From Anthoceros angustus (Eukaryota; Plantae; Anthocerotophyta): a stretch of 64,000 nt of DNA. The position numbers and the translations under genes were made by a program. The notes beneath the pieces were generated by a model. The model had not been told where the DNA came from. It worked only from the letters and a program-made list of their open reading frames with translations, and did no database searches. Of the stretch, positions 3,480 to 33,256 are shown piece after piece (position 1 is the stretch's first letter; each line of letters starts with the position of its first letter). The DNA is taken from the NCBI GenBank assembly GCA_010909165.1, contig VJWM01000119.1:372001-436000 (forward strand). The letters are read 5' to 3'.

Positions 3480-3485
3480 CATCCA
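3480..3485. repeat. Left target-site duplication CATCCA
   Basis: Identical hexamer at 33251-33256, immediately outside both TIRs. Confidence 0.85.
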
Positions 3486-3539
3486 TATGGCATACCAAAG
3501 AGGACAGAGGGGACGGACATTTTTTTTCTTCCGCAAAAC
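3486..3539 (+). repeat. Left terminal inverted repeat
   Basis: TATGGCATACCAAAGAGGACAGAGGGGACGGACATTTTTTTTCTTCCGCAAAAC, compared with the reverse complement of the right end, TATGGCATACCAAAGGGGACAGAGGGGATGGGACATTTTTTTTTTTCGCGAAAC. Confidence 0.92.
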
Positions 3540-3789
3540 TTTTGGTGTCCGGTTTGGTAACCCGTAAATGGGGTAGCCCAAAGGGGACGACCAAAGCGCC
3601 ACATCATGTCACCGGATTTTAAAGGGAACTTTAGGGTTTTTTGCGCGCACTCACTCTATGTGTTTTTTCTCCCATGAACAAAAATTTTTGTTCCACGCAA
3701 CGCTCCTATTTAGGGTCCCAGGCCTCATAGGCAAGCCACATGCCCGCTTTTAGGGTTCATGTGCTAAGAGGGTGGAGCAGATGGTTTAG

Positions 3790-6700
3790 GCGGGGGTTTA
3801 GGGCAACCGATTTGGCGGGGGCGCTGCGCCACGCACGGCAGTGGTTGGGGCGGCCAGGCAGTGCATCGACGGGAGGGGCGAGGTCCGAGGCGGGCGGCGA
3901 GGTGCGGCAGCGTGTCCAGCAGTGCAGCACGCAGCGGCGCCTCGGGCGGCGAGGCGGGCGGCGGCGGCGCCTCATTCGGCCGGGCGGCGAGGCAGGCGGG
4001 GCGAGCCCACCGCCACGGACGCATGGGCCGAGGGACGAGGCGGGCAAGGCACGGGGCGGGGCGGGGGTTTCGCGCGGACGGCGGAGAAGGCGGGCGGGGC
4101 GAGGCACGGGGCGAGGAGGGGCCTGCGGTGGCGGCGAGGGACGGAGGCGGGCGGCGGGCGAGGCGGGCGAGGCGGGCGGGCCTGCAATGGGCCGAGGGAC
4201 GGAGGCGGGCGGCGGGCCTTCACTGGGTGACTCGGCCAACTGCAGTAAGGAGAGGCGGGCGAGGCGGGCGAGGCAAGGCGGGCAAGGCGGGGAAGGCCGG
4301 GGAGGCGGAGGAAGGCGGTGCGGGCGCAGGACGCGACGCGGGCAAGGCGGGCGGCGGGCGAGGCGGGCGGCGAGGGACGGAGGCGGGGCGTGGCGAGCCT
4401 GCCGGGCGGCGCGATCGCGAGGGAGGAGGCACCACTTAAGCCCTCCCATCCTGCACCAAGCCGCAACTAACCTTGTCCCCATTCCTTCCCGCCCATGGTG
4501 ATGCCGAATTGTTTGATGCTCTTTCTTTGCAAGCGGTGACACGCAGATGGTCGCTGTGCCACCGCAGTATTGTAGGCTTCTGCGGTTGTGGGCGGGATGG
4601 CACCGCCCACCCTCTCCTCCTCACATGCCGCAGCCGCACCGCAGCCACCTGCATGTGGGGCAGCGGGAGGAGGGTTCCACGATCTCCTCCGAGCTCACCC
4701 GATCCTAATATGTGGAGTGAGTTGTTTTACGTGTCTTATGACCCCAAGAAGCCAATGCATCCTTTGTCACGAGGAGCTTGATGCGCTTTGCAAAGATGCG
4801 GAGGACCACAACGACCTCATCCGCCACATAGAGAACTACCCTTGACTTCAAGTTCTTTTCGAGCCGAGGAGCGTGGTCGCAGTATTTGACCGGACTCGAC
4901 TTCCTATCGCGAGAGTGCCTTCCGTGTCGGAAGCGCACTATTTCATGCATACCCATTTTGATGGGTGGCCATTGGGTCCTAACGATCACCGTGAGGCCTC
5001 GCGGTCCAAGCACCCGAGTCACCGGAGGACTTCAAGGCTGGATGGCCAAGTTTCACTCCGACGGCTTGACTCACAGCTACCGGCCTCGACGCTATCGCCT
5101 TCCGGATTTCATCTCAACGCCTTCTACGAATTGGACGACGCCAACCATGTCTTGTGGGAGGAGATGAGCGACCTCTACATCATCGAGGGCGGTGATCATG
5201 GGGTTAGGATCGCTGGTCATGTGCTTTAGGCACCGTGGAGCGGGGGTTTAGGGCAACCGATTTGGCGGGGGCGCTGCGCCACGCACGGCCGGGCGGCGGC
5301 CAGGCAGTGCGGCGGGCGGGAGGGGCGAGGTCCGAGGCGGGCGGCGAGGGACGAGGCGGGCGAGGCAAGGCGGGCGGCAGGCGGGCGAGGCAAGGCGGGC
5401 GTGGCGAGCCCGCCAGACGCCATGTCCTCGCCACTTGCATGTCCTCGCCACTTGCATGTGTGGGCGGGCGGGCGAGCCCAGCCGCGAGGCGGGCGGCGAG
5501 GCAGGCGGGCGGTGGGGGTTTCGCGCGGACGGCGGAGAAGGCGGGCCGCTCGGGCAAGGCACGGGGCGGAGGAGGCGGGCGCGAGGGACGAGGCGGGCGG
5601 GCAAGGCGGGGCGGGCGGGCGGGCGGGCAAGGCGGGCGCGAGGGACGGACGAGGCGGGCCTTCACTGGGTGACGACGGGCGGGCAAGGAGAGGCGGGCGA
5701 GGCGGGCGCGGCGAGGCAAGGCGGGCAAGGCGGGGAAGGCCGGGGAGGCGGAGGAAGGCGGTGCGGGCAGGGACGCGACGCGGGCGGGCGGCGCGCGAGG
5801 CGGGCAAGGCGGGGCGGGCGCGAGGCGGCGCGATCGCGAGGGAGGAGGGGCCACGAATGCCTCCCATCCTTGCACCAAGCCGCAACTAACCTTGTCCCCA
5901 TTCCTTCCCGCCCATGGTGATGCCGAATTGTTTGATGCTCTTTCTTTGCAACGGCCGACACGCAGATCGCCTGGTGCCACCGCAGTATTATTGTAGGCTT
6001 CTGCGGTTGTGGGCGGATGGCACCGCCCACCCTCCTCCTCACATGCCGCAGCCGCCCACCGCACCATCGCATGTGTGGGCGGGGAGGAGGGTTCCACGAT
6101 CTCCTCCGAGCTCACCCGATCCTAATATGTGGAGTGAGTTGTTTGGTGTCTTATGACCCCAAGAAGCCAATGCATCCTTTGTCACGAGGAGCTTGATGCT
6201 TGCAAAGATGCGGAGGACCACAACGACCTCATCCGCCACATAGAGAACTACCCTTGACTTCAAGTTCTTTTCGAAATGAGGAACGTGGTCGCAGTATTTG
6301 ACCGGACTCGACTTTATCGCGAGTGCCTTCCGGAAGCGCACTATTTCATGCATACCCATTTTGATGGGTGGCCATTGGGTCCTAACGATCACCGTGAGGC
6401 CTCGCGTCCAAGCACCCGAGTCACCGGAGGACTTCGTGGATGGCCAAGTTTCACTCCGACGGCTTGACTCACAGGCTGCACGGCTGGCCTCGACGCTATC
6501 GCCCCCTCCTGGATTTCATCTCGACGTCTTCTACGAATTGGACGCACGCCAACCATGTCTTGTGGGAGGAGATGAACGACCTCTACATCATCGACGACAG
6601 TGATCATGGTGGTTAGGACTGGTGGTCATGTGCTTTACGCACTGTGGAGCAGGGGTTTTGATAGGACTTGATGTACGAGGCCTTTACGGTTTAGATTTGT

Positions 6701-8750
6701 AGGTGTCTTGGATCCACTTCCACATGTTGACTTGACCGAATTTTGGCGCTTTCGTCATTCGTTTATTCTCACCACTCGGCGGATATACATGCCTCGTTTT
6801 CAACTTGCCTCGGTTCATGCTTGCCGCCGCATCGTGTTCCCTCTTGCATTTTGGCCGCTTTTCCATTCTCCTTCGCCTTGTGAACCCCCGGCTTTTGCCC
6901 CACTTTCCATGTCGTCACACTTGCTTATTATGTCGAACCCATACAGTGCCTTGTTTGATGTGTCTTGGGTCCATGGAACTCACTCCCTCGCCTTTCCTAT
7001 CCATGTCCACCTCTCTACCCGTGCACAAGACACCCGTCGTTGCCAACACGCCTCTGCGGCCCTCGGATGACAAGTGTTACGAAGAGGTTAAGGGCTCTCC
7101 ATGTCCACAGTGCCTTGGTCTTCATTCCACTCCACACCATATCTTTGCGTGGGATCCCCGTCTTTGCAAAGCCTGCGGTCACTTGCTCGTCACAGTGATA
7201 CATGTCCGGAGGTAATTTGTACATTGCAAGCACCTCGTCGCCATGTCCTCGCCACTTGCATGTCCCGCACACATCCTTTGTCGTCAACAAAGAATCGCTG
7301 GTGTTCACATTCACGGCGGTCTTGGCAGCGTTCACTTACCCATCGGCAATGCAATTGGAGGCGGTGCCACCTCGGTGCAACGTTGCGGGCGTCTTGTGGT
7401 CGGGGACATAGTAGTCGTTGTCGTCCTCCTCGTCTACCCCATAGCGGGCGGCCCTACCGAGGCCGGGCGGCGGCGCCTTACGCTGGCAGGCGCCCTCATT
7501 CGGCGCGGCGGCGCGGCGGGCGGGCGGGCGAGGCGGGCGGGCAAGGCACGGGGCGAGGCGGGGCGAGGCGGGCAGGCGGCCGGGCGGGTGGGGGTTTCGC
7601 GCGGACGGCGGAGAAGGCGGGCAAGGCGGGGAGGCGGGCAAGGCACGGGGCGGAGGAGGGCTGCGGTGGCGGCGGGCAGGCGGGGCGGGCAGGCGGGCGG
7701 GCGTGTGGCGGGCGGGCGGGCGGCAGGCGGGCGAGGCGGGCGAGGCGGCGGGCCTTCACTACAGGTAGACGGCGGCGGCCAGCTGAGCAGGAGGCGGGCG
7801 GGCGGGCGGGCGGGCGGGCAAGCGGGGAAGGCGGGAGGCGGAGGAAGGCGGTGCGGGCGAGGCGGCGGGCGAGGCGGCGGCGGCGGCCGGGCGGGCAGGC
7901 GGGGCGTGGCGAGGCAAGGCGGGCGGCGGGCGAGGCGGGCGGCGGCCAGCGCTCCTCCTCCCATCCTTGCACCAAGCTGCAACTAACCTTGTCCCCATTC
8001 CTTCCTGCCCATTGTGATGCCGAATTGTTTGATGCTCTTTTCTTTGCAAACGGCTGACACGCAGATGGTTTAGGCGGGGCGTGGTCGCGGTATTATTGTA
8101 GGCTTGCTGCGGTTGTGGGCGGGATGGCAGGCACCGGCCCACCCTCTCCTCCTCACAGGCCGCATGCCGCACCATCGCATGTGTGGGGCGGCGGTGGAGG
8201 AGGGTTCCACGATCTCCTCCGAGCTCACCCGATCCTAATATGTGGAGTGAGTTGTTTCTGGTCTTATGACCCCAAAGCCAATGCATCCTCGTCGAGGAGC
8301 TTGATGCTGTTATTGCGACATGCGGAGGACCTAGCGACCTCATCGCCACATAGAGAACTACCCTTGGACTTGAAGTTCTTTTCGAGCCGAGGCGTGGTCG
8401 CGGTATTTGGGTGGACTGGACTTCCCTCTGCGAGTGCCTTCCAGTGGGCGCACTATTTCATGCATACCCATTTTGATGGGTGGCCATTGGGTCCTAACGA
8501 TCCTGTGAGGCCTCGCGTCCAAGCACCCGAGTCACCGGAGGACTTCAAATGTGGATGGCCAAGTTTCACTCCGACGGCTTGACTCACAGGCTGCAGTGGC
8601 CTCGGCCTTCTCGCCCCTCCGGATTTCATCTCAACGTCTTCTCTGAATTGGGCCTTGCCAACCATGTCTTGTGGGAGGAGATGAGCGACCTCTACATCAT
8701 CGAGGGCGGTGATCATGGGGTTAGGATCGCTGGTCATGTGCTTTAGGCAA
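3790..8750. repeat. About three imperfect copies of a module: G-rich low-complexity tract plus an unknown coding-like segment
   Basis: CCTCCCATCC(T)TGCACCAAG...GATCGCTGGTCATGTGCTTTA recurs at about 4440-5229, 5860-6638 and 7957-8746. Each copy is preceded by GGCGGGCGAGGCGG-type tracts. Confidence 0.85.
4440..5229 (+). pseudogene. Unknown transposon-internal coding-like module X (other copies ~5860-6638, ~7957-8746, partial 11773-11990)
   Basis: Protein-like peptides recur across copies: DLIRHIENYP(LDFKFFS), AHYFMHTHFDGWPLGPND, GFHLNxFYELDDANHVLWEEMSDLYIIEGGDHGVRIAGHVL*. All copies are frameshifted and I do not recognise the family. Confidence 0.4.
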
Positions 8751-9299
8751 GTGGGCGAGGGGTTTTGATAGGACTTGATGTCTGAGGCCTTTCTTGTTTA
8801 GATTTGTAGGTGTCTTGGATCCACTTCCCACAGTTTGACTTGACCAATTTTGGCGCTTTCGTCATTCGTTTATTCTCACCACTCGGCGGATATACATGCC
8901 TCGTTTTCAACTTGCCCTCGGTTCATGCTTGCCGCCGCATCGTGTTCCCTCTTGCATTTTGGCCCGCTTTTCCATTCTCCCTTCGCCTTGTGAACCCCCG
9001 GCTTTGACTTTCCATGTCGTCACACTTGCTTATTATGTCGAACCCATACAGTGCCTTGTTTGATGTGTCTTGGGTCCATGGAACTCACTCCCTCGCCTTT
9101 CCTATCCATGTCCACCTCTCTACCCGTGCACATCCCACCCACCACCCACGCCTCTGCGGCCACCTCGGATGACAAGTGTTACGAAGAGGTTAAGGGCTCT
9201 CCATGTCCACAGTGCCTTGGTCTTCATTCCACTCCACACCATATCTTTGCGTGGGATCCCGTCTTTGCAAAGCCTGCGGTCACTTGCTCGTCACAGTGA

Positions 9300-11760
9300 T
9301 ACATGTCCGGAGGTAATTTGTACATTGCAAGCACCTCGTCGCCATGTCCTCGCCACTTGCATGTCCCGCACACATCCTTTGTCGTCAACAAAGAATCGCT
9401 GGTGTTCACATTCACGGCGGTCTTGGCAGCGTTCACTTACCCATCGGCAATGCAATTGGAGGCGGTGCCACCTCGGTGCAACGTTGCGGGCGTCTTGTGG
9501 TCGGGGACATAGTAGTCGTTGTCGTCCTCCTCGTCTACCCCATAGCGGGCGGCCCTACCGGGCCAGCGGCGCTCCTCCTCTGGAAGGCCTCCCGCGAGGC
9601 GTGGCTGCTATGTCATCGTCTCCCGACCTCATTTTCCTCACCACATGCAAGTTCCACACCAACGAAAGTCGCCACTCTGTCCTCATGGTGGGCATGAATC
9701 TTTGCGTGGGATCCCGTCACACTTGCTTATTATGTCGAACCCATACAGTGCCTTGTTTGCTTCGATCGCAGGCGATACATGTCCGGAGGTAATTTGTACA
9801 TTGCAAGCCCGCCAGACGCCATGTCCTCGCCACTTGCATGTCCCGCACACATCCTTTGTCGTCCCATTGGTGTTCACATTCACGGCGGTCTTGGCAGCGT
9901 TCACTTACATCGGCAATGCAATTGGAGGCGGTGCCACCTCGGTGCAACGTTGCGGGCGTCTTGTGGTCGGGGACATAGTAGTCGTTGTCGTCCTCCTCGT
10001 CTACCCCATAGCGGGCGGCCCTACCGGGCCAGCGCTCCTCCTCCGGAAGGCCTCCCGAGGCGTGGCTGCTATGTCATCGTCTCCCGACCTCATTTTCCTC
10101 ACCACATGCAAGTTCCACACCAACGAAAGTCGCCCGGCTCATCCTCATGGTGGGCATGAATCTTTGCGTGCAAGGAATGTATGTGCCAAGGGTTCGTGGT
10201 ATCCAACTCAGGCATCACGGGCTCAACATGTACCTCTTGTCAAGCCCCTTCTCCTTGACCCTCGAGTGCTCGATCCGCTGGCCCACACCCACATCCCCAC
10301 CCACCACCCACGCCTGCTATGTCCGCACGGCTCCGGCGTCCATAGTCTGTGACCCGCAATCGGCAAGCACAATGCATCCAAATCCCTTCACATGACAACG
10401 TATGCACCTTACGATTGTGCAGATGGCCCCGTGTGAAGTTCCTACCGTTCTCTCATGACTGGTTGAGTCCTCCTCCACTAGGTTGTGCTCGCGAAATCGG
10501 ACCGAATCCTGCGGGTGACCAAACTCTCTGCCCGCATTTTGGCCCGCCCATTCTCCTTCGCCTTGTGAACCCCCGCCCGGCTTTTGCCTGCCACAAAGGC
10601 CACACTTGCTTATTATGTCGAACCCATACAGCTGCCTTGTTTGATGTGTCTTGGGTCCATGGAACTCACTCCCTCGCCTTTCCTATCCATGTCCACCTCT
10701 ACCCGCTTGCAGACACAACCAAGACCCCCGCTTGCCAACACCGCCTCCGCGACGCACCTCGGATGACAAGTGTTCAAGAGGTTAAGGGCTCTCCATGTCC
10801 ACAGAGTGCACCGGGTCTTCATTCCACTCCCACACCATATCTTTGCGTGGGATCCCCGCCGCAATACAAGCACACGGTCACACCGATGCGCGATACATGT
10901 CCGGAGGTAATTTGTACATTGCAAGCCCGCCAGACGCCATGTCCTCGCCACTTGCATGTCCCGCACACATCCTTTGTCGTCAACAAAGAATCGCTGGTGT
11001 TCACATTCACGACGGCCTTGGCTTGACGCTCACTTACCCCGCTGCAATGCAATTGGAGGAAGCGGTGCCACCTCCGGCAACGCGGGGCGCATCGTGGTCC
11101 GGGACATAGTAGTCGTTGTCGCCCTCCTCGTCTACCCCATAAGCGGCCCTACCAGCGCCCACGCTCCTCCTCCGGAAGGCCTCCGCGGACGTGGCTATGT
11201 CATCGCCTCCCGACCTCATTTTCCTCACCTGCAAGTTCCACACCAACGAAAGTCGCCACTGTCCTCATGGTGGCATGAATGCCGCAAGGAATGTATGTGC
11301 CAAGGGTTCGTGGTATCCAACTCACGCCGTCCCGGAGCTCCAACATGTACCTCTTGTGTGAAGCCCCACTTCTCCTTCGCCGTGCTCGATCCACCGGCCC
11401 ACACCCACATCCCCACCCACCACCCACGCCTGCTATGTCCGCACGGCTCCGGCGTCCGAAATTGCGCAGCCGCAATCGCAAGCACAATGCATCCAAATCC
11501 CTTCACATGACAACCAAGATGCACCTTACGATTGTGCAGATGGCCCCGTGTGAAGTTCCTACTCTCCGGCCGCCTGGTTCAGTCCTCCACTAGGTTGTGC
11601 TGCAATCGGACCGAATCCGCTGCGGGTGACCAAACTCTGCACCGCCTCCGCAGACGCCTGTAGATTGTTCCCCGCTTGTTGTCCTCGAGCACGCCCACGT
11701 TATGTAGTGCGTGGCCCCATCTATGGCGGCACCTCAAGTGGAACATGTACATCTTGTAAA
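9300..11760 (-). pseudogene. Tandem partial copies of the integrase 3' half (~9300-9700, 9780-10530, 10890-11760; also 7200-7455)
   Basis: Repeated segments encoding FGHPQ(D/R)I/SRSD-type, HNRK, RIEH, LDTTNPWHIHSLH, WNLHVVRKMR and YGVDEEDDNDYYVPD motifs. Each copy has different indels. Confidence 0.75.
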
Positions 11761-12569
11761 TGCAGCTGTGAAAGCACCCGAGTCACCGGAGGACTTCGTG
11801 GATGGCCAAGTTTCACTCCGACGGCTTGACTCACAGTGTGCACCGGCCTCGACGCTTATCGCCCTCCGGATTTCATCTCAACGCCTTCTACGAATTGGAC
11901 GACGCCAACCATGTCTTGTGGGAGGAGATGAACGACCTCTACATCATCGAGATGTGATCATGGGGTTAGGATCGCTGGTCATGTGCTTTAGGCACCGTGG
12001 AGCAGGGGTTTTGATAGGACTTGATGTACGAGGCCTTTACGCTTAGATTTGTAGGTGTCTTCGCATCCCGCTTCCCACGCTTTGACTTGACCAATTTTGA
12101 CGCTTTCATTCGCTTATTCTCACCACTCGGCGGATATACATGCCTCGTTTTCAACTTGCCCTCGGTTCATGCTTGCCGCCGCATCGTGTTCCCTCTGCCC
12201 GCATTTTGGCCCGCTTTTCCATTCTCCCTTCGCCTTGTGAACCCCCGGCTTTTGCCCCTTTCCATGTGCCACACTTGCTTATTATGTCGAACCCATACAG
12301 TGCCTTGTTTGATGTGTCTTGGGTCCATGGAACTCACTCCCTCGCCTTTCCTATCCATGTCCACCTCTACCCGCTTGCAGACACAACCAAGACCTCTGCT
12401 GCTAACGCCCCCCGCGACGCACCTCGGATGACAAGTGTTCTCAAGAGGTTAAGGGCTCTCCATGTCCACAGAGTGCACCGGGTCTTCACTCCACTCCCAC
12501 ACCATATCTTTGCGTGGGATCCCCGCCGCTCGCAGCAACCACCGCGTCGATGCAGCGATACATGTCCGG

Positions 12570-13900
12570 AGGTAATTTGTACATTGCAAGCCCGCCAGAC
12601 GCCATGTCCTCGCCACTTGCATGTCCCGACACATCCTTTGTCGCCATCAAAGAATCGCTGGTGTTCACATTCACGACGGTCTTGGCTTGACGCTCACTTA
12701 CCCTCGCAAGAATGCAATTGGAGGAAGCGGTGCCACCTCCGGCATGCAACGGCGCATCGTGGTCCGGGACATAGTAGTCGTTGTCGCCCTCCTCGTCTAC
12801 CCCATAGCGGGCGGCCCTACCAGCCACCGACGCTCCTCCTCCGGAAGGCCTCCGCGGACGTGGCTGCTATGTCATCGCCTCCCGACCTCATTTTCCTCAC
12901 CTGCAAGTTCCACACCAACGAAAGTCGCCACTGTCCTCATGGTGGCATGAATCTGCGTGCAAGGAATGTATGTGCCAAGGGTTCGTGGTATCCAACTCAC
13001 TACCGTCCCGGAGCTCCAACATGTACCTCTTGTAGAAGCCCCACTTCTCCTTCCGCCTGTGGTGCTCGATCCGGCCCACACCCACATCCCCACCCACCAC
13101 CCACGCCTGCTATGTTCGCCACGGCCCCTCGAAATTGCGCAGCCGCAATCGCAAGCACAATGCATCCAAATCCCTTCACATGACAACCAAGATGCACCTT
13201 ACGATTGTGCAGATGGCCCCGTGTGAAGTTCCTACTGCTCTCTCTACCGGTTCAGTCCTCCTCCACTAGGTTGTGCTCCGCAACAATCGGACCGAATCCG
13301 CTGCGGGTGACCAAACTCTGCACCGCCTCCGCACGCCCCAGATTGTTCCCCGCTTGTTGTCCTCGAGCACCGCCCACGTTATGTAGCGTGGCCCCATCTA
13401 TGGCGCGTGCACCACGAAGTGGAACATGTACATCTTGTCGACCGCAAAGAAAGCACTCGCACCCGTTAGCTCCTCTGCGTTCTCCTGCGGCATTTGGACT
13501 CGGTGACCACCATGGGGACCAAGTTCCCTCAACACTCACGATCCATGTGCCACATGTACATCGGTGTTACATTAGGTATCTTGCACCCGAATCTTGCTGC
13601 GCGCATTTCCATGGCCTCGGTGCATGGCTCATAATCTTTGCCGTCACACCTTCTCGGCACGGCGGCCCGGCCCCATCTCCCCTCCGCCTGCACAATCCGC
13701 ACTCCCAATTCACCACCGCGTGATGGTCACATTTTGTAGGATGAGGTTGCGGGCGTCTTCTAGTGTTCTCGGCGGACCCGTAGCATCCTCTCCATCCGGC
13801 ACCGTGCAGCCACCTCCTCAACGTCCGCGGTGCATCCCGGCTCGCTGCGAGCCCTTCAATGTCCGTCCGCCTCCTCCGCCCCTCTGCGATGTTCCTCAAA
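12570..13900 (-). pseudogene. DDE integrase/transposase (rve integrase-core, IS3EU-type), most complete copy, intron-containing and frameshifted as assembled
   Basis: Motifs occur in order: HTH-like LAASRDAPRTLRRW; GELGVRIVQA; EAMEMRAAR; PMYMWHMD (D 13541-13543); [intron GTGAGT]; KMYMFHFVVH-AIDGAT-YITWAVLEDNK; FGHPQRIRSD (D 13286-13288); HNRK-[intron]-IEH (E 13065-13067); ELDTTNPWHIHSLH-FMP; WNLxVRKMR; YGVD. This mirrors the eukaryotic integrase-core consensus WHIDGNHKL-FVIHGGIDG-YGxPxRVRSD-HNQRIER-LDPxNxxHxxxLH-WNxHxLR-YGID. Confidence 0.85.
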
Positions 13901-13939
13901 GTCTCCACTTGAAGGGCAGCCTCCCGACTGCCTTTCCAC

Positions 13940-16510
13940 ACCCTCCGCCCGCCTGCTTGTGCCTCGAGTGCACTGCTCGCCTCCACCTCCGACACTTCGC
14001 TTCCTCCGCCGTCCTCCCCATCCCTCCCCGCCCCGCGCCTCGGCCCCATCTCCCCTCCCTTCCAAGACGCCATCTCCCCTCCGCCCGCCCGCCACCCACG
14101 CCATCCGCTCGGCGCCTCGACCCCCGTCCCTCCTTGCCACCTCGCGTTGCCTCGCCCCTCCGCCCCAGCTCGCTCCGATGTGCGCCCTCGTCCCGGCCCC
14201 TCCGCCTGCTCGCTCCGATGTGCGCCCTCGTCCCGGCCCCGCGCCCGTCCCTCGCACCGGTTCGGCCCGGCCCCTCCTCCCACCCCGCGCCCGCCCGCCC
14301 GCCCCGCCCTCCTCCGGAAGGCCTCCCGGCCCCGCGCCCTCGCTCGTCCCTCGGACCCGGCCCCGCCCCTCGCCCGCTCCCTCCGCCCGCCTCCGCCCCG
14401 CGCCCGTCCCGCCCTCCTCCCCTCCTCCGCCCGCCCCGCCTCCTCCTCCCCACGGCTCCGGCGTCCGAAATTGCGCAGCCGCAATCGCAAGCACAATGCA
14501 TCCAAATCCCTTCACATGACAACCAAGATGCACCTTACGATTGTGCAGATGGCCCCGTGTGAAGTTCCTACTCTCCGGCCGCCTGGTTCAGTCCTCCACT
14601 AGGTTGTGCTGCAATCGGACCGAATCCGCTGCGGGTGACCAAACTCTGCACCGCCTCCGCAGACGCCTGTAGATTGTTCCCGCCCCGCTTGTTGTCCTCG
14701 AGCACCGCCCACGTTATGTAGTGCGTGGCCCCATCTATGGCGGCACCTCAAGTGGAACATGTACATCTTGTCGACGCAGCAAAGCACTCGCACCGTTAGC
14801 TCCCTCTGCGTTCTCCTGCGGCATTTGGACTCGACCACCATGGGGACCAAGTTCCTCAACACTCACCATGTGCCACATGTACATCTGTTCGTGCGGTATC
14901 GCACCACGAATGCGCACCGCGGCGCATTTCCATGGCCTCCTACCGCATGGCTCGCAATGCGCCGCCACCGCCTCCGCCTCCTCCTGCCGATGCACACCGC
15001 CTCGCACCGCCCCGCACAATCCGCACTCCCAATTCACACCGCCGCGTGATGGTCACATTTTGTAGGATGAGGTTGCACGCCTTCTAGTGTTCTCGGCGGA
15101 CCCGTAGCATCCTCTCCATCCTGGCACTGCCCACCTCCTCAACGTCCGCGGTGCATCCCGGCTCGCTGCGAGCCCTTCAATGTCCGCCCGCCTCCTCCGC
15201 CTCCGCGATGTTCCTCAAAGTCTCCACTTGAAGGGCAGCCTCCCGACTGCCTTTCCACACCCTCCGCCCGCCTGCTTTCAGCTCGAGTGCACTGCTCGCC
15301 TCCACCTCCGACACTTCGCTTCCTCCGCCGTCCTCCCCATCCCTCCCCGCCCCGCGCCTCGGCCCCATCTCCCCTCCCTTCCAAGACGCCATCTCCCCTC
15401 CGCCCGCCTCCACCCCGCCCTCCTCCGCCCGCCCCTCGCCTCGGCCCCATCTCCCCTCCTTGCCACCTCGCGTTGCCTGCAGCCCTCCGCCCCAGCTCGC
15501 TCCCGTCTGCGCCCGTCCCGGCCCCTCCGCCTGCTCGCTCCGATGTGCGCCCTCGTCCCGGCCCCGCAGCCCTCCGCCTCGCACCGGTTCTCGGAGGCGG
15601 CCCGGCCCCTCCTCCCACCCCGCGCCCGCCCGCCCGCCCCGCCCCTCCGCCCGGCCCCGCCCCGCGCCCTCGCCTCCCTCCGCCCGCCTCCGCCCCGCGC
15701 CCGTCCCGCCCCTCCTCCCCTCCTCCCCTCCGCCCACGCCTCCGCCCGCCACCCCGCCCCTCGCCCGCCCCTCCTCCCCTCCTTGCCTCCGCCGCCCGCC
15801 CGCCCGCCCCGCGCCTCGCCTCCCGATGTGCGCCCTCGCCCGCCTGCCCTCCGCCCCTCCGCCCGCCCCTCGCCCGCCCCGCGCCTGCCTCGCACCCGCC
15901 CGCCTGCCCTCCGCAATTGAAACGCCTCCTCCGCCTCGCACCTTCCTCCCACCGCGCCTCGGCCCCCGCCTCCGCCGCCTCGCACCCGCCCCGCGCCCGC
16001 CTCCCTCCGCCCGCCCCGCCGGCCCCGCCTCCTCCTCCTCCCACCCCGCCCCGCCCCGCCTCCGCCCATCCCATCCTCCAACCCCTTCCGCCGCCCCGCC
16101 TCCGCCGCCTCCACTCCGCCCGCCCCTCGCCTCCACCCCGCCTCCTGCCGATGCACACCGCCTTGGCCTTCATCGCGCGCCTCCACCCCGCCCCGCCGTC
16201 GCTCAGTCCATCCCCTCAAGGCAATGGAACCCCGTCCGTTCTCTGCGGCGTCCCCATGCTTCTGCGGGTGTTCGCGTGCTGGTGCTATCCTCCCCATCCC
16301 TCCGCCCCGCGCCCGCCCGCCCCCTCCGCCCATCCCATCCTCCAACCCCTTCCGCCACCCCGCCCCGCCTCCTCCCCTCCCTCCTCGTCATGACCATCCC
16401 TCCTGCCGATGCACACCGCCGTCTTGGCCTTCATCGCTGCCGCCTCCACCCCGCGCCCGCCGTCCATCGCCTCAAGGCAATGGAACCCCGTCCTCGCCTC
16501 CGCCCGCCCC
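13940..16510. repeat. C-rich low-complexity tracts (13940-14460, 15250-16510; also 18760-19085)
   Basis: Runs of CCGCCC/CCTCCGCC. 13940-14460 is largely re-used in 15250-15720. Confidence 0.8.
14455..15250 (-). pseudogene. Second copy of the integrase N-terminal and core region
   Basis: Encodes QMYMWHM, DKMYMFH, AIDGAT, AEFGHPQRIRSD and HNRK. Near-identical to about 13135-13930. Confidence 0.75.
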
Positions 16511-20969: not shown

Positions 20970-23245
20970 ACATGCTTGGCCGCTCCTTTCCGACTGGCAC
21001 TCTCGACCCAATCGCGGTGGTATCGTGTAGGCGTAGCAACTCCTCTTCGTCAAGGGAGTGGCGGAGGTTGGTAGAGGCCCAAGTCTCCAGCAAGTCTTGA
21101 GCTCTATCGCCCGAGGTCGGGCCGGGTCTATGTCTTGAGAGCCTCGCGGCGGGCGTCCGATCGGCTATGAAGCTATCTATTGTCCCGACATCGTAAAGCT
21201 CCAACCCGGCACACCGACAGGTATCCAATCCCTTCCGTGTCTATCCCATGTGCCTTTCTCCATTATCGCGTGGGCGTCCGTCAACAACGCGTGGTCCGGG
21301 TTCCCACCTTGGCACTCCAGATCTTCGCCTCCGCAAGATGGCGAAGAACATTTTCGCCTCGGCGCTCGAGCATTCCGTTTCACGCCGGAAGATGGTGGCG
21401 ACTTTCTTCGCATCCTCCGGGATAACCGCGCATGCCATGCCGCCACAAGCCGCTAAATGCGTCGGGCAATGGGCCGTGCCGGAAAGGCGCGTTCACCGTT
21501 CCGCTGCGGTGTGTTGGGGTGACGCTCACCCGCACCCGGCGGGCGTCGCCGTCCTTTCTTCCGCCCGCTCATTTCCGTGCCGCCTCCCGCAATGCATTGA
21601 GAGCCCCGGTCCGGCGATGTCGCCTTGATGCCACAGTCGGGCGCCGCCTTTCTTCCGCCCGCTCATTTCCGTGCACGCCCGCAATGCATTGAGAGCCCCG
21701 GTCCGGCGATGTCGCCTTGATGCCACAGTCGGGCGCGCCGCCAACGTCCGGCTGCATCCCGAACCATGTCGTCGCTCCACCCGTGACCGTCCCCACCGTC
21801 GCATCCTCTTCCGGCGAACGCACCTCTTCGTCTTCCAACACGCCTTTTGGCGTGGTTACGGAGCATGTCGGCGTCATCGGGATCGGGATCCCACATATAA
21901 CGGCGCACCACGCAAAACGTTAGCGCTCTCGGATGCGGTCTTTGCTGGAGGGAAGAGGAGTGGCTCGCTAGGGCGGCGGTCGGTGCTGCGGCTTGCACCT
22001 TCCGATTTCGATGAAGCGGCGGGCCCAAAGAGTGCGGGCAAGGCGGAAGAGCACCGCGGCGGCGTGGCCGGCGAGTGCGGGCTCGAATTAACCATCGCCC
22101 CACGGGCATGGCGGGGGCGTGCAAGTCGGCAGCAGTGCAATCCGCAACTCAATCCGACAAACCGCCTCTCCCCATCACCGCTTGTCCTAAGTGGATGCCC
22201 TCGTATATGCGATTCTCGGAACCGTGATCTTCAACTTCTTCATGTGCACGCGACCATGCGCGCCGCCGTCCCCTTTCCCGTCTCCCCACGCTGAGACCAT
22301 TATCGGGTGATTCCGACGTTGTGTCAGGGGAATGTTTCAATCGCCGCGCGGACCGTTGCCTCTTCCGGGCGCGGGCGAAGGTGCGTTCTGCGCTTCCCCT
22401 GAGGTTCCTACCCCTGATGCAGCCACCTTGGGAAGTAGACTGCCGGCTACCCGGAGGACCGCCGCCGGCGGGTGTCGCACACCCCGCGGGCCCTGCGTTC
22501 CACGTCTAGCGCAAGTCTGCGGAGGCCGTCGAAGCTAGCACGAAGGAGGGCGTCCCGCGATGGGGGTTACATTGGAAAACATTTTCATCGTCATCGTCGT
22601 CGTGTACCCAATCCTCCAAGATGTCGTCACCGCAATCGTGCACCTCATTCAATCTGCGACGGCGCTCAGGCCTTTCGTCGGTGGCCATGCCTTCAGTGCG
22701 AAGATTGCAGGTTGCACCGGAAATTGGAGATGTCTGCCTGTGAACCGGCTCCGTGAAGAGAGATGTGCAGACAGCGGGCGCGAGAGAAGAATGCCAGTGA
22801 TCTTCCGATGTCATATATCAAACCCTTTTACCTTCCGGGACTGCGGTACGGATCGCCGTTTGCCCGCATGCACACTCTTCCGCAGCCAGAGAGGTCACGG
22901 CCATTACTGCGTAATCGCGCCCCAAATTTTCTCATCCGCTTTTCGGATATGCAATTGGGCGTATATATCTTTGTATGGGAACATGTGCCTGTTTTAAAGG
23001 TTTCAACGCCCGGCGGCCAGCGCGCTTGCCGCCTCCCCAAAGCGGCGGCGGTGGCGAGAGGTCATTAAATGCGCAATGGCGTGAGGAGAGATGCAATGGA
23101 TGGGAGGCTCCGGTAGCCGGGTTCGCAGCGTCCACCCGATACATTATGCACCGCAATGCACGAACAAAGCGCCCATAATCAGCAGTAGGGGCGCGGCGCG
23201 GTAATGACACCGCCATTTCGTCATCTCCGAATATGGGAAATGCCA
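20970..23245 (-). CDS. Putative upstream coding segments, possibly the N-terminal part of the HECT protein
   Basis: Protein-like minus-strand fragments (MAFPIFGDDEMAVSLPRRAPTADYGRFVRALRCIMYRVD; ILEDWVHDDDDDENVF; KKVATIFRRETECSSAEAKMFFAIL; ELYDVGTIDSFI) preceded by an AT-richer region at 23300-23670. Exon structure is unresolved. Confidence 0.35.
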
Positions 23246-24830: not shown

Positions 24831-24924
24831 GAGGGGATCGGTGGTGTATAAATCACGTGGAATAGCGAATGTATGGGGAGGCGGTAACTGCGAAGTAGTT
24901 GGCTACATACATGGCGATTTGTTG

Positions 24925-25525: not shown

Positions 25526-25784
25526 GCGGCGGGGCGGCGACTTCTTACACGCAAGTGTGATGGATGGAGAGGGAAAGAGCTGCGTGCAGTGCGCGTGCTC
25601 GGCCGATGGCGGCGGCGGTGGCAGCTGCTTTTGCTGCACATCCTTGGAATGGAAGCGGAGGAGTTTGCCTCGCGGTGGCTAGTGGAAGCGCCGAGGAGGT
25701 GGTGCGGAATGCGGGAGGACTTTCAGTGCGACGATAACACAGTAGAGAGAAAGGGACGGTTGTCGTCCGGTAGTGCCGTCTTGA

Positions 25785-28700
25785 GGAGGTGAAGATCCGG
25801 TGGACAAAGGGCAAGGCGGGGCGGGGCGGTGGCCAGCGGCATGGCCGTTGTGGAGCAGGCGGAGGAGGAGGAGGCTTGGAGTGGCATGGATGACGGGAGG
25901 GCGTTGGAGGCGGTGTCGGAGGTGCGGCGAGGGAAGGGTCTAGGAAAACCTACACGTTCTTGTTGCTATTTTGCTTGCTATGCGATCACGTTATGAGCTT
26001 GCCATGGTGTGCGATGAGTGGCAATGGTAATATCTGGCGGTGGCGGCGGGGGGCACTGCCTCCCCATGGCGAGGCGGAAACCCCAAATAATGGAAACCCC
26101 AAATCATGATTGTGAATAGTGATGTGTTTTGGGCGATCAGTATACGCTCACTAGTGTCATGTGAAGAGGACAGAGTTGGCGGTTAAGGACACGAACATAA
26201 GGAGGCGAAAAGGGTTGACAAAGCCGAGAGACAAAATTTTATGGTTGCCATCCGGTCTGCGATCGAGCGGGGTGGTGGACAATTGGAGTTCATGATCGGC
26301 GGTGGCGGCGGGCCGCACGGCACTGCACGCCATTTGCAGACACTGCATGCAGGGCAAATTCGGGGGACCGTTAAATGGGCGGCCCGAATCGGGCCATGGC
26401 AGCCAGAGACAACGGCAGACCTCTTTGCGAAATAGGAACCCCAGGTTGCGAGGACACGCGGAGTCGCCAACGTCGACACCGAGGCAGCCAGCCAGGAAGT
26501 GCATCGCAATTGGAAAGTAGGGAGCGTAGAAGGGCGCGGAAGGGGGGGAGTGAAGAAAAAAGGGCACCTCGGGCGTGGAAGGCGGCGATGCGGAGGAGGC
26601 GGATCGCGGTGGTGGCAACAGCGGGGAGGCGGGGCGGCGGGCCGAGCCATGGTGGAGGCCACGCTCCCTATTCCGCTGCCGGCGATGGCGGTGGCGAGCA
26701 TTGGGGCGGGGCGCCATGGCGGCAGCGGCGAGAGGCGGCGCGGCGAGGGGAGGCGGGGCGGGGAGCACTCTGCCTCCCCATGGAGAAGGAGGCGGGGGAT
26801 GGCGCCTCCCGGCGATGGCGGCGGCAGTGCGGGGCCCCATCTTGAGGCGGGGCGGGGGGCATGCCCTCCCCATGGCGATGGAGGCAGGCGGGGAGGGCAG
26901 TCGCCTCCGCCCTCAAGGAAAGGGGCTGGCCTCCCGGCCATGGCGGCGGCAGCGGCGGGCGGGGAGCACTGCCTCCCCATGGAGAAGGAGGCGGGGCGGG
27001 GCGCCTCCCCGCCGATGGCGGCGGTGCAGGCCCAGGCGGCAGGCGCGGGGAGGCATGCCTCCCCATGGCGAGGCGGGGCGGGGAGGCGGGGCGCCTCAGC
27101 CCTCGAAGGAAAGGGGCTGGCCTCCCCTCGCGATAGTGGCGGCAGAGGCGGCGGGGCGGGCGGGCGGGGGGCACTCGCCTCCCCATGGCGATGGCGGGGA
27201 GGCGGGGCGCCTCGCCTCTCGAGCAGGGGCGGGGAGGCACTGCCTCCCCATGGCGGAGACGGAGGCGGGGGCGATGAGGCGGGGCGGAGGCGAGGCGCCC
27301 GCCCTCGAACGGGGGCTGGCCTCCCCATGGCGGCGGAGGCAGCAGGCGCGGGCGGCGGGACGGGAGGAGGCACTCGCCTCCCCATGGCGAGGCGGGGCGG
27401 GGAGGAGGCGGGGCGCCTCGCCCTCGAACGGGGCAGGGCCTCCCCAGCGAGGCAGGCAGCGGGGCGGCAGGGACAGCGGGGAGGAGGCACTGCCTCCCCA
27501 TGGCGATGGAGGCGGGGGAGGCGGGGCGCCTCGCCTCTCGAAAGGGTGGCCTCCCGGCGATGGTGGCGGCGGGAGGCGGGGGACCCAGCGAAGGCGCGGG
27601 GAGGGCGCCCGCCTCCCCATGGTGATGGAGGTGGCGGTGGGCTCGGCGGAGCTGCGGAGGAGGCAGAGGCGGGTTGCCCTCCCCACGCGATGGCGGGGCG
27701 CCCGCCGCCGAGGCCGAGGGGAGGCGGGGAGCATGGCGCGCCGAGGAAGGCAACCCCGCCTTTGGGGCGGGGTCGTTGAGGGCAGCGAGGAGGCGATTGC
27801 CGCCGCCGCCGCCGGCCGAGGAGGTGAAGATCCGGTGGACAAAGGGCAAGGAAGCGGGCAGAGGCGGGGGCGGGGATGGCGGTGGGAGCGGAGGCGGAGG
27901 AGGAGGAGGCTTGGGTGGCATGGATGACGGGAGGACGTTGGAGGCGGTGTCGGAGGTGCGACGCGAGGAAGGGTCTAGGAAAACCTACACGCTTGTTGCT
28001 ATTTTGCTTGCTATGCGATCAGTTATGAGCTTGCCATGGTGTGTGAGTGGCAATGGTAGTAATATCTGGCGGTGGCGGTGGCGGAGGCGGCGCCATGGCG
28101 GCAGGCGGAAACCCCAAATAATGGAAACCCCAAATCATGATTGTGAATAGTGATGTGTTTTGGGCGAGTATACGCCCACCGCGAGTGTCATGAAGAGGGA
28201 GTTGGCGGTTATGACACGAACATAAGGAGGGTTGACAAAGCTGAGAGACAAAATTTTATGGTTGCCATCCTGCCGCAGCCGAGGGTGGTGGACAATTGGA
28301 GTTCATGATCGGCGGTGGCGGTGCACGCAGACTACCGCACGCCATTTGCAGACATCGCATGCAAATTGGGGACGATGGCGGCCCGACCGGGCCATGGCGA
28401 CCAGAGACAACGGAACCTCTTTGAAATAGGAACCCGGTTGCGAGGACACGGAGTCGCCAACGTCGACACCGAGGCAGCCGGAAGTGCATCGCAATTGGAA
28501 AGTAGGGAGCGAGGCGAAGGGGAGTGAAGAAAAAGGGCACCTCGGGCGTGGAAGGGCTAAACGATGAGGAGGCGGATCGCGGTGGCGGCAAGCGGGGAGG
28601 CGGAGGCGACGCGACGCGGAGCCATGGTGGAGGCCACGCTATTCTGCCGCCGACGATGGCGGTGGCGGCATTGAGGAGCGCCATGGCGGCAGAGAGGGGC

Positions 28701-30060
28701 GCGGCGCGGCGAGGGGGGGGAGGGCACTCTGCCTCCCCATGGAGAAGGAGGCGGGGCGGATGAGGCGCCCGGCGATGGAGGCGGCAGGCAGCGGGGCCCC
28801 ATGCAGGGCGGGGAGGGGCGGCGCCTCCCCATGGCGATGGAGACGGAGGCGGAGGGCGAGCGCCCGCCTCAAGGAAAGGGGCGGCGGCGCCTCCCCGCCA
28901 TGGAGGCGGCATGGCGGCGGGGAGGGCACGCCTCCCCATGGAGAAGGCGGGGGCGGGGGAGGCGCCTCCCCCGATGGAGGCGGAGCGGCAGTGCGGGGCC
29001 CTGCAGGGGCGCAGCGGGGAGGGCATGCCCTCCCCATGGCGGCGGAGGCGGGCGGGAGGGCGAGGCGGCGGGAGGCGGAAGGGGCAGCCTCCCCATGGTG
29101 ATGGCGGCGCGGCGGGGCTGTGCGGCGGGAGGGAGACTGCCTCCCCATGGCGATGGAGGCGGGAGGCGGGGCGCCCGCCTCTCGAACGGCGCGGGCCTCC
29201 CCCGATGGTGGCGGCAGGGGCCCCAGCAGCAGTGGGGAGGGCACTGCCTCCCCATGGCGATGGAGGCGGGGCGGAGGCAGGCGCCCGCCTCTCGAGCAGG
29301 GGCAGCCTCCCCTCGGCGGAGGCGCAGGCCCGCGGCGGCGGGACGGGAGGCCTCCCCATGGCGATGGAGGCGGGGAGGCGGCGCCCTCCTCGAACGGGCG
29401 GGCTGTGGCCTCTCAGCGATGGAGGCAGGCGCGGGCGGGGCGAGGAGGGGAGGGCACTCGCCTCCCCATGGCGAGGCGGGGCGGGAGGCGAGGCGCCCGC
29501 CTCGAAGGAAAGGGGCAGGCCTCCCCTCGATGGAGGCGGCGGTGGGAGCGGGGACCCAGGCGGGCGGGCGGGGAGGGCACTCCCCATGGTGATGGAGGTG
29601 TGGCTCGAGCGGAGGAGCTGGAGGAGACGGGGGGTTGCCTCCCCAGCGCGATGGCGGGGAGGAGGCACTCGCCTCTCGAGCGGAGGAGGCGGAGGCGGAG
29701 CATGGCGCCGAGGAGGAAGGCAACCCCGCCTTTGGGGACGGCGGGTCGTTGAGGACGCGAAGGAGGCGATTGCCGCCGCGCCGCCGCCGAGCCGAGGGGA
29801 GGAGGGATGGCGCAGTGCCTCACGCCGCGCCCGAGCCGGAGGCCGAGCTCGGCATGGCGCGGTGCCATGTCTGCCGCCGCCATGCCCGAGCCGGAGGTGG
29901 AGCATGGTGGCGGCATCGCGATGTTGCCGCCGAGACCGAGGCCGACGGAGCCTAGCGATGGCGGAACGAGGCGGGGATGAAGCGGCCGTCTTTGGGAGCG
30001 GAGGAGGCGATTGCCGCCGCCGAGCCGGAGGCGGGTTGCCCTCCCCAGCGATGGCGGCAG
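25785..30060. repeat. ~2-kb imperfect tandem duplication with a G-rich minisatellite (core GCCTCCCCATGGCGATGGAGGCGG)
   Basis: 25785-26700 matches 27820-28690 (GAGGTGAAGATCCGGTGGACAAAGGGCAAGG, GGAAACCCCAAATAATGGAAACCCCAAATCATG). CTCCCCATGG repeats many times in 26770-27620 and 28730-29590. Confidence 0.85.
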
Positions 30061-31179
30061 GGGCGGCGGGGCGGGCGAGGCGCCTCCGGTTGAGAAAAGC
30101 GTTTATGGGAGGAATAACCAGTTCCATCGGTGGAGCATCTCGGCGTGGGCGGAAGCGCGGATTAAGAGGCTCGGGAGGCGAGGCTGCGGAGGAGGCGGGG
30201 CGGCTGCCGCGAGCTCACGCAGCGGTGGAGGGAGCATCGGCGGCACCGTGGGAGGAGGAGGAGGAGGAGGAGCAGCGGCGGCGGTGGCGGAGGCGGAGGC
30301 CATGTCGGAAGAAGAAGGAGGCGGAGTGCGGCTCCAACTCGCGGAGGCGAGCACAAGGGGAGGCGCGACTACGAGAGTCGGACACGGTGTCGGAGTGGAA
30401 GCCCGGCGGGTGCCTCCGACGCCCAATCCCGGACGCTGCGGAGGAGGCGACCAGCGGCGGAGGAGGCGATGAACCGCGGAATGCTCGGCCGTCGAGGCCA
30501 TGGAGGGCACAATTAAGGTTCTCCGGCAGATGATGAAGCGCATGGAGGACGAGGGGAAGTAGGCGGCGTCGTCATCCCTTGTGCTCAGAGTTGCATCACC
30601 AGCGCTGTTAGGTTTTTTGCATAGGGGGCCGAAGCATGCGCCTTAGGAGGCCGCGGTAGGAGATAGGGTTGGATGCTAGCTGTGCAATTTTGCGATGTGT
30701 GCAGTGGACATCCTTTTTTGATCAATGCAATGGCAGCCCTTCGCTGAAAATTTCGGCGCTTTGCACGGCGCCTATCCGTTCTTGGCGAGGTTGTTGGGTA
30801 GGCGGCGGTGGTGGTGTGGGTTCTTGCCGGCTTACTAATTCGCGGGTGGAAGAAAGCAGTGAGAGCAAGTCAAGTCGGTTGAGCCGGATCATGAGTTTTG
30901 AAGACCACCGATGCATCTGGCGTTGAATGTGGTTGTAGAAAATGGGAAGGACTTTCAAAGTGGGGTGTGTTTGTGGACCGAACCTTGTGGATGGGGGTTT
31001 TGCGAGCCGCTCGCTCATCTAACATGAAAGGCAATGATCAGCAAGGCGTCGAGAGGTGCATCAAAGCCACCCTTACAGGGAAGGAAGCCGGTGCAAGAGG
31101 ATGTGTTAGCTGCCACATAGGTGGGGAACGATGTGGCGAGGAGGAATGGCTGACCCTAACAGGATGACCGTTGTTTGAG

Positions 31180-32570
31180 TCCCGCAGGCTTGTGCGAATG
31201 TACGCACCCTAGGTGCGGAGAAGGGGAGACGGCTGCATCTGCAGGTGACGAAAAGAGACTGGATAGCGATGTGTTTGTGCCCACCACTGTGGTGAATATG
31301 TATGCCAAGTGTGGGAGAATGGAGGACGCTTAGGGAGTGACGTTGTCGCGAAGAGAAATTATGGCGGGAATTCTCTCGTGACACCTCACTGTGGTGGGAT
31401 GAAAGGCAAAATCCGCGTGTGAGATAGATAGGGCAAGCAGGCCATCCACCTATACCATTCGATGCGCAGTGGAGTGCACACGCAAATGCCCATGTGTTTG
31501 TGGGAGGTGGGCGGAGTGTGCAAGGGCATCCGATAAGAAAATGGGTACTAGGGCATGCAGTTTATTACTTGATGCGGACAGGTTTACATGCGACTTAAAG
31601 TGTGGTGAACATGTATGGAATGTGTGGCGATTGGGGGCGGACAATCGAATGGCAGCCTACACGGAAGAAAGTGGTGACATGAACGCTTTCATAGCACCAT
31701 AACTGAGGAAGGTATGGGGCGAATACCACAGGCTACAACCACCGGAGCCATGGGTGTCCCATGCATGATGACATGTGTGGCACTTGGTGGGTTGTGCGTG
31801 TGGGCCGCCTCTGGAGAAGGGCGGCTCCATCTGACGAGGAAAAGAGAGCATGAAGACCATGTATACGTGCCAAAGCAGTTTGGTGGATATGTATGCCAAG
31901 TGTGGCGAGAATGGAGGACGTCGACATCGACGTTGTCGCCAGGAAACATGGTGGCAACAATTTTAGTGGTGGCCCCTCACTGTGGAGGAATGAAAAGCCA
32001 AAATGTGCTTGTAACCAGGGGAGAGGACAATCAGGCCATACAGCTGTTACAACGGACGTGGAGGTCGAGTGCAAACCCACATGCCCATATGTTTGAGGAA
32101 GGTCTTCAGGCTGGTGGAAGGGAATGCGATATGAAATCTGGGCAGCAGGTGCTTGCTGCTTTGTTAGGTAGTGGCGTGGAACCAGATTCCCATGTGTCTA
32201 CCGTCGGTGAACATATATTGAAAGTGTGGCGTAATGGAGGAATGACAACCAAGAGCGTAATAATGTGGTGACATGGATCGCTTTGATTGCGACATATTCT
32301 CGTGAAGGTGAGGGGTAGACAACCGTGCATCATCGATGGTATGCAAGATGAAGCCATGGTATACGTAATTGCATGATGCCAGGTGCCTCGCATGCTTGCG
32401 CGAGTGTAGGCACCCGGCTCGGAGAAGGGGAGCCGACCACGGTGTCAGAAAAGAGGACATGATGGCAATGTGTTTGTGCCGACCATTGTGGTGAATATGT
32501 ATGCCAAGGGTGGCGATTGGAGGATCGATGAGTGTTTCATAGACTTGGTCGAGGATGTGGTTACCTAGAC
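31180..32570 (+). pseudogene. Degenerate PLS-class pentatricopeptide-repeat (PPR) gene inside the transposon
   Basis: ACANVRTL..EKGRRLHLQV / LDSDVFVPTTVVNMYAKCGRMEDA; LVDMYAKCG; QAIQLLQ...GQQVLAALLGSGVEPDSHV; GNVFVPTIVVNMYAKGG...DVVT. These are classic L/S motif pieces (ACA..GxxxH...GLxSDVFVxxxLVxMYAKCGxxEDA). Confidence 0.8.
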
Positions 32571-33197
32571 TTGCATAATAGGAGGGAATTCACCACCGTG
32601 TGTGCGTGTGACCCTTCATGTATACCGTGATATGGAAGAATAAGGCATGGGTCTACCCACCGGTCACCCATCCCTCTTCCATCGTGGAGGTGGATCTCGC
32701 TAGAACGTGTTTCGGGCAACGCGTGTACCCTAAACCCTACAAACAAGAATCCATTGTCCCTAGATAAGAAGACACGGACACGCCCGCGAGCGTGTGCAGG
32801 GTTCGCAAATGATGGCCGTGCCGTCGGCCTCGGCCGTCATTGCCTTGCAAGCCCATGGCCGGGGCTGACGAAGGGTTTGGCAACCAGATTGGTGCGGCCT
32901 GCGCGGCGGGCGGGTTAGGGTTTGCCGGGCATGGGATAGCATCGAAGAAAACTTAATGGCAGGAGGAAGTGTAGAAAACTTGAAAACATAGTTTCCCGGT
33001 CCCGGCTCTTTGTTTTCAAAGTTGGAAGGACAAAACATTTAAACCAAACTTAGGGTTTGGGGACCTAAAAGTGTGTGTCCCTTTGGTGCTTGGCGCTCTT
33101 GGTTAGGGCGCCAAAGCGGCCATGTGGGCATGTGCTCAAAAAGAAACCGTCTTTGGAATGTAGGGTATATTCCTCAACATCCCCACGCCTTGCATGG

Positions 33198-33250
33198 GTT
33201 TCGCGAAAAAAAAAATGTCCCATCCCCTCTGTCCCCTTTGGTATGCCATA
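33198..33250 (-). repeat. Right terminal inverted repeat
   Basis: Imperfect reverse complement of 3486-3539, ending ...CTTTGGTATGCCATA. Confidence 0.92.
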
Positions 33251-33256
33251 CATCCA
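33251..33256. repeat. Right target-site duplication CATCCA
   Basis: Matches 3480-3485. Confidence 0.85.

Follow-up and report, generated by a model that had tools for sequence, protein, structure and literature searches.

The question raised by a 64,000-nucleotide (nt) stretch of the Anthoceros angustus genome (GenBank assembly GCA_010909165.1, contig VJWM01000119.1, positions 372,001 to 436,000 of the forward strand; the whole stretch is called the window below) is what kind of mobile element occupies positions 3480 to 33256, how long this element is, and whether the HECT-type ubiquitin ligase gene found inside it is the element's own. A preliminary description, made from the letters of the window, had proposed an IS3EU-like DNA transposon of about 30 kb. 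The explanation considered best here, and held to be probable, is a multi-copy DNA transposon of the GingerRoot/IS3EU type, the length of which is likely 18-21 kb and the HECT ligase of which is likely its own accessory gene.

As assembled, the element extends from 3486 to 33250 (29,765 nt), starting with TATGG and ending with CCATA, and its borders are made up of the following features.

3480..3485, no strand: left target-site duplication, CATCCA, lying within an X1 contig over 3000-3515 with 0 substitutions
3486..3535, plus strand: left terminal inverted repeat, starting TATGG, about 45-50 nt
33201..33250, minus strand: right terminal inverted repeat, ending CCATA, with an X1 contig covering 33234-33440
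33251..33256, no strand: right target-site duplication, CATCCA

The two terminal inverted repeats (TIRs) are identical at 27 of the 28 outermost nucleotides and can be matched with gaps to about 45-50 nt, the target-site duplication (TSD) CATCCA is perfect on both sides, and the flanks contain 26-27% G+C compared to 62% in the interior of the element; the repeats, the duplication and the AT-rich flanks had been described before and were all found again. Termini of the type TA..TA (TAYGG..CCRTA), inverted repeats and a 6-bp TSD, which characterize IS3EU and GingerRoot elements, are thus present together. The entire window was scanned for inverted 12-mers bordered by a 6-nt direct repeat, and the 25 matches comprised the pair 3480-33256, one pair with mismatches at 12 of 28 positions, and 23 palindromic hexamers situated in an inverted duplication of LRR sequence. 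The intact TSD and TIRs are compatible with a recent insertion. Seven of the 14 TTAGGG motifs of the window are located subterminally in the element (3631-3803 and 32915-33108), all on the plus strand, and may represent binding sites.

The junctions were compared with the contigs of four public short-read runs, two of which, X1 and X2, come from the same sample. Of the sampled words of the left flank 78% were found in X1, which may be the sample behind the window. The runs X3 and X7, from other organisms, hardly covered the right TIR, and X2, presumed to be RNA, did not cover the HECT gene and the transposase, to which no weight is attached. At the left junction an X1 contig matches 3000-3515 without any substitution and reaches 30 nt into the TIR, an overhang that would be expected of a unitig stopping at a repeat, and at the right junction another covers 33234-33440 and reaches only 17 nt into the TIR. 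Other sequence precedes the TIR start at 3486 in three X1 and four X2 contigs, and two X2 contigs continue beyond 33250 into other flanks. The loose ends thus occur at both termini and in X1 as well as X2, and since the same TIR stands next to differing flanks, the ends belong to a dispersed, multi-copy family, as the claim that further copies of the TIR exist had anticipated. Several points weigh against this picture of one insertion of a multi-copy element: a contig was counted as bridging a junction when at least 31 letters lay beyond it, and both junction contigs fall below this limit; no contig of the runs spans the whole element, so that the two ends are assigned to a single insertion on the basis of the assembly and the shared TSD; and contig depth, which summed to 214-580 on the TIRs and amounted to 15.2 and 10.8 in the flank contigs, does not give copy numbers. 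The loose ends listed included no contig with the empty site, a result of little weight if the sample was haploid or inbred.

The contigs agree over the 30 outermost nucleotides of the TIR and diverge behind 3516, and the right end (33001-33250) has a match of about 84% in a 1369-nt contig of X2, which then passes into another flank; it follows that several sub-families have these ends in common. One X1 contig, with a depth of 15.6 (the level of the flanks) and aligned to 3486-3515 and 33223-33250, contains 30 nt of the TIR start, five other letters and a second TIR start in the same direction. The likely source of this contig is an insertion, at a different locus, of one element into the terminus of a sister copy; the junction of abutted ends or of a circle was rejected, as both pieces read in the same direction.

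It could be argued that the two ends belong to separate insertions merged by misassembly or by nesting, with a TSD that matches by chance, and the noisy interior, the 30 nt shared by several sub-families and the lack of a spanning contig would all suit such an origin. A specific 6-mer, however, would match by chance in about 1 of 4096 cases, and the two flanks are both unique and AT-rich, with contigs of flank depth extending into each TIR, which renders this explanation highly improbable and leaves a single insertion of one element as the preferred reading.

The interior of this element encodes, on the minus strand, a transposase of the expected type, recognized by motifs rather than by an intact reading frame.

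12540..13560, minus strand: core of the GingerRoot/IS3EU transposase with ordered motifs, frameshifted in the assembly, with probable GT-AG introns
13560..18700, minus strand: probable N-terminal part of the transposase gene, GC-rich and of low complexity, without a Pfam match; its extent would be as given

The claimed gene for a DDE integrase core is borne out by motifs that follow each other in order on the minus strand within about 12900-13560, namely WHMD at 13552 (D1), AIDGA at 13404, FGHPQRIRSD at 13315 (D2), RIEH at 13073 (E) and NPWH at 12983. All five stand in the order of the family series and the residues D, D and E are all present, as in the integrase-like core of IS3EU and GingerRoot. 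The spacing from D2 to E would be about 32-35 codons on the assumption of a GT-AG intron of about 125 nt. Beyond NPWH an acidic stretch is followed by a knuckle-like motif, CxxC...GH. Compared by eye, the motif pieces resemble the GingerRoot row SL_GR-020 and the published IS3EU rows. Partial copies of the core occur at about 9950-10540, 11000-11780 and 14450-14900, with the integrase motifs being present three to four times overall. Against 20 shuffled sequences three motifs were enriched, the D2 motif (3 compared to 0), AIDG (3 compared to 0.2) and NPWH (3 compared to 0.3).

What speaks against the identification of the transposase is that WHMD (1 compared to 1.2) and RIE (4 compared to 4.05) were not enriched over the shuffles, and that no Pfam family was found on the transposase pieces in scans of 275 open reading frames (ORFs), a result explained by the frameshifts, which cut the gene into short pieces and may be read errors. 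A word-based protein search with a 47-residue piece of the integrase and a scan of viral contigs with a transposase piece gave no match.

The family to which the element belongs has been described in several publications, cited here and below from the accessible parts of their texts. Cerbin et al. (2019, PMC6839031) reported GingerRoot from Selaginella lepidophylla with 77 intact elements of 3.9-12.9 kb, 72 of them with TA..TA ends, having 6-bp TSDs and TIRs of 100-150 bp, and noted relatives in mosses, lycophytes and aquatic animals. Kojima and Bao (2023, PMC10045372) united GingerRoot and IS3EU in one lineage with 99% bootstrap and gave for IS3EU the termini TA..TA, a TSD usually of 6 bp and the motif series WHxD, HGxIDG, GxPxxxRxD and HNxRIE. 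Fungal IS3EU elements of rust fungi and a truffle show TAYGG..CCRTA ends, TIRs longer than 30 bp, a 6-bp TSD and extra genes (PMC12730594). Judged on the sequence of its ends, TSD and motifs and on its dispersal, the present element is a real member of IS3EU/GingerRoot. The earlier assignment to an IS3EU-type element with an integrase-like transposase is therefore upheld by ends, duplication and DDE motifs alike, and its further claim of an undescribed plant lineage has to be given up, since GingerRoot, which clusters with IS3EU (PMC10045372), was already described in 2019 as a plant branch in Selaginella and mosses (PMC6839031). An element of this type being known in non-seed plants, the insertion as such is ordinary.

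With GingerRoot the element shares the TA..TA termini, the 6-bp TSD, a DDE core resembling that of SL_GR-020 by eye, a multi-copy state, captured host gene fragments and a plant host, but it differs in size, at about 18-21 kb after collapse of duplicates compared to the maximum of 12.9 kb given in the accessible text, and in TIRs of about 45-50 nt compared to 100-150 bp in S. lepidophylla. With the IS3EU superfamily it shares the TA..TA ends, the 6-bp TSD and the motif series; the accessible text of PMC10045372, however, contains no accessory ubiquitin ligase, in contrast to the HECT gene here. The fungal IS3EU elements that carry TET genes are alike in their TAYGG..CCRTA ends, TIRs longer than 30 bp and extra genes, including one opposite to the transposase, but these extra genes encode a TET/JBP dioxygenase and an alpha-kinase (PMC12730594). 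A loose precedent is Zisupton of platyfish, a DNA transposon the protein of which has a domain of the ubiquitin pathway, an F-box (cited in the accessible text of PMC12062965), although Zisupton belongs to another transposase superfamily and its F-box lies inside the transposon protein and not in a separate HECT gene.

Other types of element were considered and rejected. IS481EU requires TG..CA termini and TSDs of about 4, 15 or 25 bp (accessible text of PMC10045372), Ginger1 and Ginger2 require TG..CA and Polinton/Maverick AG..TC termini (accessible text of PMC6839031), and the element has TA..TA termini and a TSD of 6 bp. A long terminal repeat (LTR) retrotransposon needs long terminal direct repeats, and the ends of the element are inverted instead. 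No reverse transcriptase or gag was found in the 258 ORFs scanned within the element, a scan weakened by the frameshifts, and the sole reverse transcriptase match of the window lies outside, at 34401-34937.

The one unusual component of this element is the HECT gene, which lies upstream of the transposase on the same strand.

19351..19620, minus strand: HECT C-lobe with a frame open to the stop, catalytic Cys retained and Tyr at the -4 position
19618..19867, minus strand: gapped repeat of the C-lobe, likely duplicated by the assembly, with 1 substitution and 17 gap events relative to the first
19868..22700, minus strand: probable upstream HECT exons (N-lobe and N-terminal extension), proposed by eye only

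The presence of a HECT gene on the integrase strand, as claimed, was confirmed for the C-lobe, which was recognized by Pfam PF00632 (E 1e-10) at 19351-19800 on the minus strand. Its Cys aligns with the catalytic Cys of E6AP and Tyr replaces Phe, such that the catalytic cysteine and the aromatic residue near the C-terminus that mark the C-lobe of a HECT E3 ligase are both found. Two home-built profiles run over six frames for the N-lobe matched only the C-lobe, and the sequence upstream is frameshifted. The C-lobe is present on an X1 contig of depth 64, about four times the flank depth; on this ground, together with the retained cysteine and the grouping described next, the HECT gene is likely borne by the element.

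A word-based protein search with the C-lobe gave no match, and a HMMER scan gave six, three of which have the motif F[IV]TDxxYF like the window, the best being an unnamed protein at 46%. A profile built from the window and three relatives found 16 proteins, and the motif is common to the top four, which scored 114-139 bits, the others reaching at most 46 bits. In a tree of 25 rows and 94 columns, the window and 11 motif-bearing rows stand apart from 13 other HECT proteins with a support of 98/100. The rows were the window and 24 of 48 stored proteins, after omission of P0003, P0018, P0026 and P0029-P0048 (near-copies or cluster members) and of P0005 (not a HECT protein). The clade with F[IV]TDxxYF includes P0001, P0003, P0004, P0007-P0011, P0024-P0037 and the locus L001, all of them unnamed or hypothetical, some intact and others (P0008, P0011, L001) broken-looking. 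Transposon copies often look broken, and the clade is a candidate for a transposon-borne family of ligases.

Several results weaken the attribution of the ligase to the element. Tool support is limited to the C-lobe, and another contig with HECT sequence has a depth of 8. The tree, of 94 columns, has long branches and compares proteins selected for resembling the window, a set that is not known to include HECT ligases of plant hosts. L001, the sole locus fetched for the clade (metagenome scan, 1487 nt), carries a deleted HECT and showed no transposase. Scans of viral contigs with P0001 and with the alignment A3 gave no match, and no HECT relative was placed beside a transposase. The gene might then be a host gene fragment captured recently by a GingerRoot element, like the PPR piece described below, and without a role in transposition, for host fragments of 84-1654 bp, some of them from two genes, occur in 22 of the 77 GingerRoot elements of S. 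lepidophylla (accessible text of PMC6839031); the recognition of the C-lobe alone and the lack of a relative next to a transposase would agree with this. Such a capture is nevertheless judged unlikely, in view of the distance of the C-lobe from all named HECT proteins (the best match, at 46%, being unnamed), its grouping with a clade of unnamed proteins, some of them broken-looking, the contig at about four times the flank depth and the fact that the X1 contigs listed include no second HECT locus. We accordingly favor, as probably correct, the reading in which the ligase belongs to the element itself. Of the earlier picture of an element with its own ubiquitin ligase and host fragments, the C-lobe and a PPR remnant thus stand as observed, and ownership of the ligase stands as likely.

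No HECT gene in an IS3EU or GingerRoot element was found in the literature searched, which did not include subscription papers, Repbase Reports, Repbase entries or figure 3 and tables S1-S3 of PMC6839031. The terms HECT, ubiquitin and PPR are absent from the main text of PMC6839031, and the word HECT is absent from the accessible main texts of PMC12730594, bioRxiv 2021.09.26.461848, PMC12062965 and PMC8075897.

DDE transposases bring the two TIRs together, cut out the element and integrate it at a staggered cut, here 6 nt wide, from which the TSD arises. The transposase of this element would bind the TIRs, excise the element and reinsert it in this manner, and the HECT gene would move along with the family, its product ubiquitinating a protein that governs transposition. 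The element's own transposase is ranked first as the target of the ligase, although tentatively, ahead of a host factor for silencing or chromatin, which is a rather doubtful candidate. The PPR piece was likely captured from the host, as often happens in GingerRoot. It is tempting to speculate, with about even chances of being right, that the HECT ligase is an ancient and regular accessory of one IS3EU/GingerRoot lineage of land plants, animals and fungi, that the proteins with F[IV]TDxxYF represent its plant branch, and that ubiquitination controls the transposase or disarms host silencing. If the ligase is indeed the element's own, a lineage of DNA transposons would possess a complete E3 enzyme, which could offer a new handle on the self-regulation of transposons or on their countering of silencing, and some odd HECT genes in plant annotations would be transposon genes.

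The size of about 30 kb given in the preliminary description was not sustained, since near-duplicate blocks bearing the signature of read errors make up about a third of the interior.

4400..5240, plus strand: ORF A, convergent on the transposase, on X1 contigs of depth 49-89 compared to 15 for the flank
5240..15782, no strand: stuttering zone, in which landmark probes trace a single collinear path with several restarts, each 1.4-3 kb back
25780..30560, plus strand: GC-rich repetitive region with near-duplicates 25783-27821 and 27818-29797

ORF A, which gave no Pfam match and no usable Atlas match, is repeated at about 5830-6650 and 7950-8760 and partly at 11770-12010, giving three to four occurrences in total that likely result from the stutter. 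In all seven internal duplicate pairs gaps were frequent, with 0.74-17 gap events per substitution and islands of 100% identity of up to 303 nt, compared to 0.18-0.24 in three older paralogue pairs outside the element and 0.25 in the PPR repeats. Two tandem pairs outside the element are noisy as well (1.43 and 9.0 gap events per substitution), and the indel signature is therefore a trait of the assembly. Contigs of X1 and X2 leave out 1414-1420 nt of the first duplicate of ORF A, and the X1 contig of depth 64 omits 260 nt at the HECT duplicate. When the later copies were dropped, the element collapsed to 18.4 kb at a threshold of 75% or to 21.0 kb at 80%. The true length is thus likely 18-21 kb, the 30 kb being inflated by the stitching of unpolished long reads within a repeat, and even this shorter element likely exceeds the plant maximum of 12.9 kb given in the accessible literature.

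It must be weighed against the shorter length that duplicates rich in indels reveal noisy sequence and not by themselves a false duplication. The full 30 kb could be genuine had this copy grown by repeated internal tandem duplication, its duplicates being merely unpolished. The contigs of ORF A with a depth of 84-89, about 5-6 times that of the flank, are partly explicable by three to four local copies, the contigs that skip duplicates could derive from sister copies elsewhere, and no read data contradict the junctions at which the path jumps back. On the other hand, the restarts follow each other in the order of a staircase, the differences are dominated by indels with islands of 100% identity of up to 303 nt, the two copies of the HECT C-lobe show 17 gaps to 1 substitution, and two tandem pairs outside the element bear the same signature (1.43 and 9.0). 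Genuine growth to 30 kb is on this balance improbable, and an inflated assembly of an element of 18-21 kb is preferred. In noisy long-read assemblies the interiors of repeats can inflate the size of an element by a third or more.

Tandem near-duplicates occur outside the element at 35247-37840, 53307-57333 and 61343-64000, the two measured differing mainly by indels, and the copy numbers of F-box and LRR genes in the assembly may be inflated too.

Near the right end of the element lies a remnant of another gene.

31050..32700, plus strand: degenerate PPR fragment of the PLS type with three MYAKxG motifs, likely captured host sequence

The PPR pseudogene reported earlier was recovered as this remnant, with MYAKxG motifs at about 31295, 31886 and 32494 and a Pfam PPR match (E 0.12) that lies below the cut-off of the family. 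The label PLS is presumed from the motif. Many contigs from all four runs gave short alignments to the remnant. A captured PPR fragment is to be expected in a plant IS3EU element, because GingerRoot is known to capture host gene fragments.

As to the surroundings, a piece of 140 nt is common to both flanks (2092-2229 and 33954-34092, 78% identity) and lies beside related sequence resembling F-box genes, from which it follows that the element was inserted into a cluster of F-box genes. The PPR, F-box and LRR genes of the window mark the host as a land plant. The reverse transcriptase fragment at 34401-34937 (RVT_1, E 3e-15), 1.1 kb to the right of the element, probably belongs to a non-LTR retrotransposon. 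Further downstream, a cluster of LRR genes at 47448-64000 contains an inverted duplication of 2.7 kb with 90% identity.

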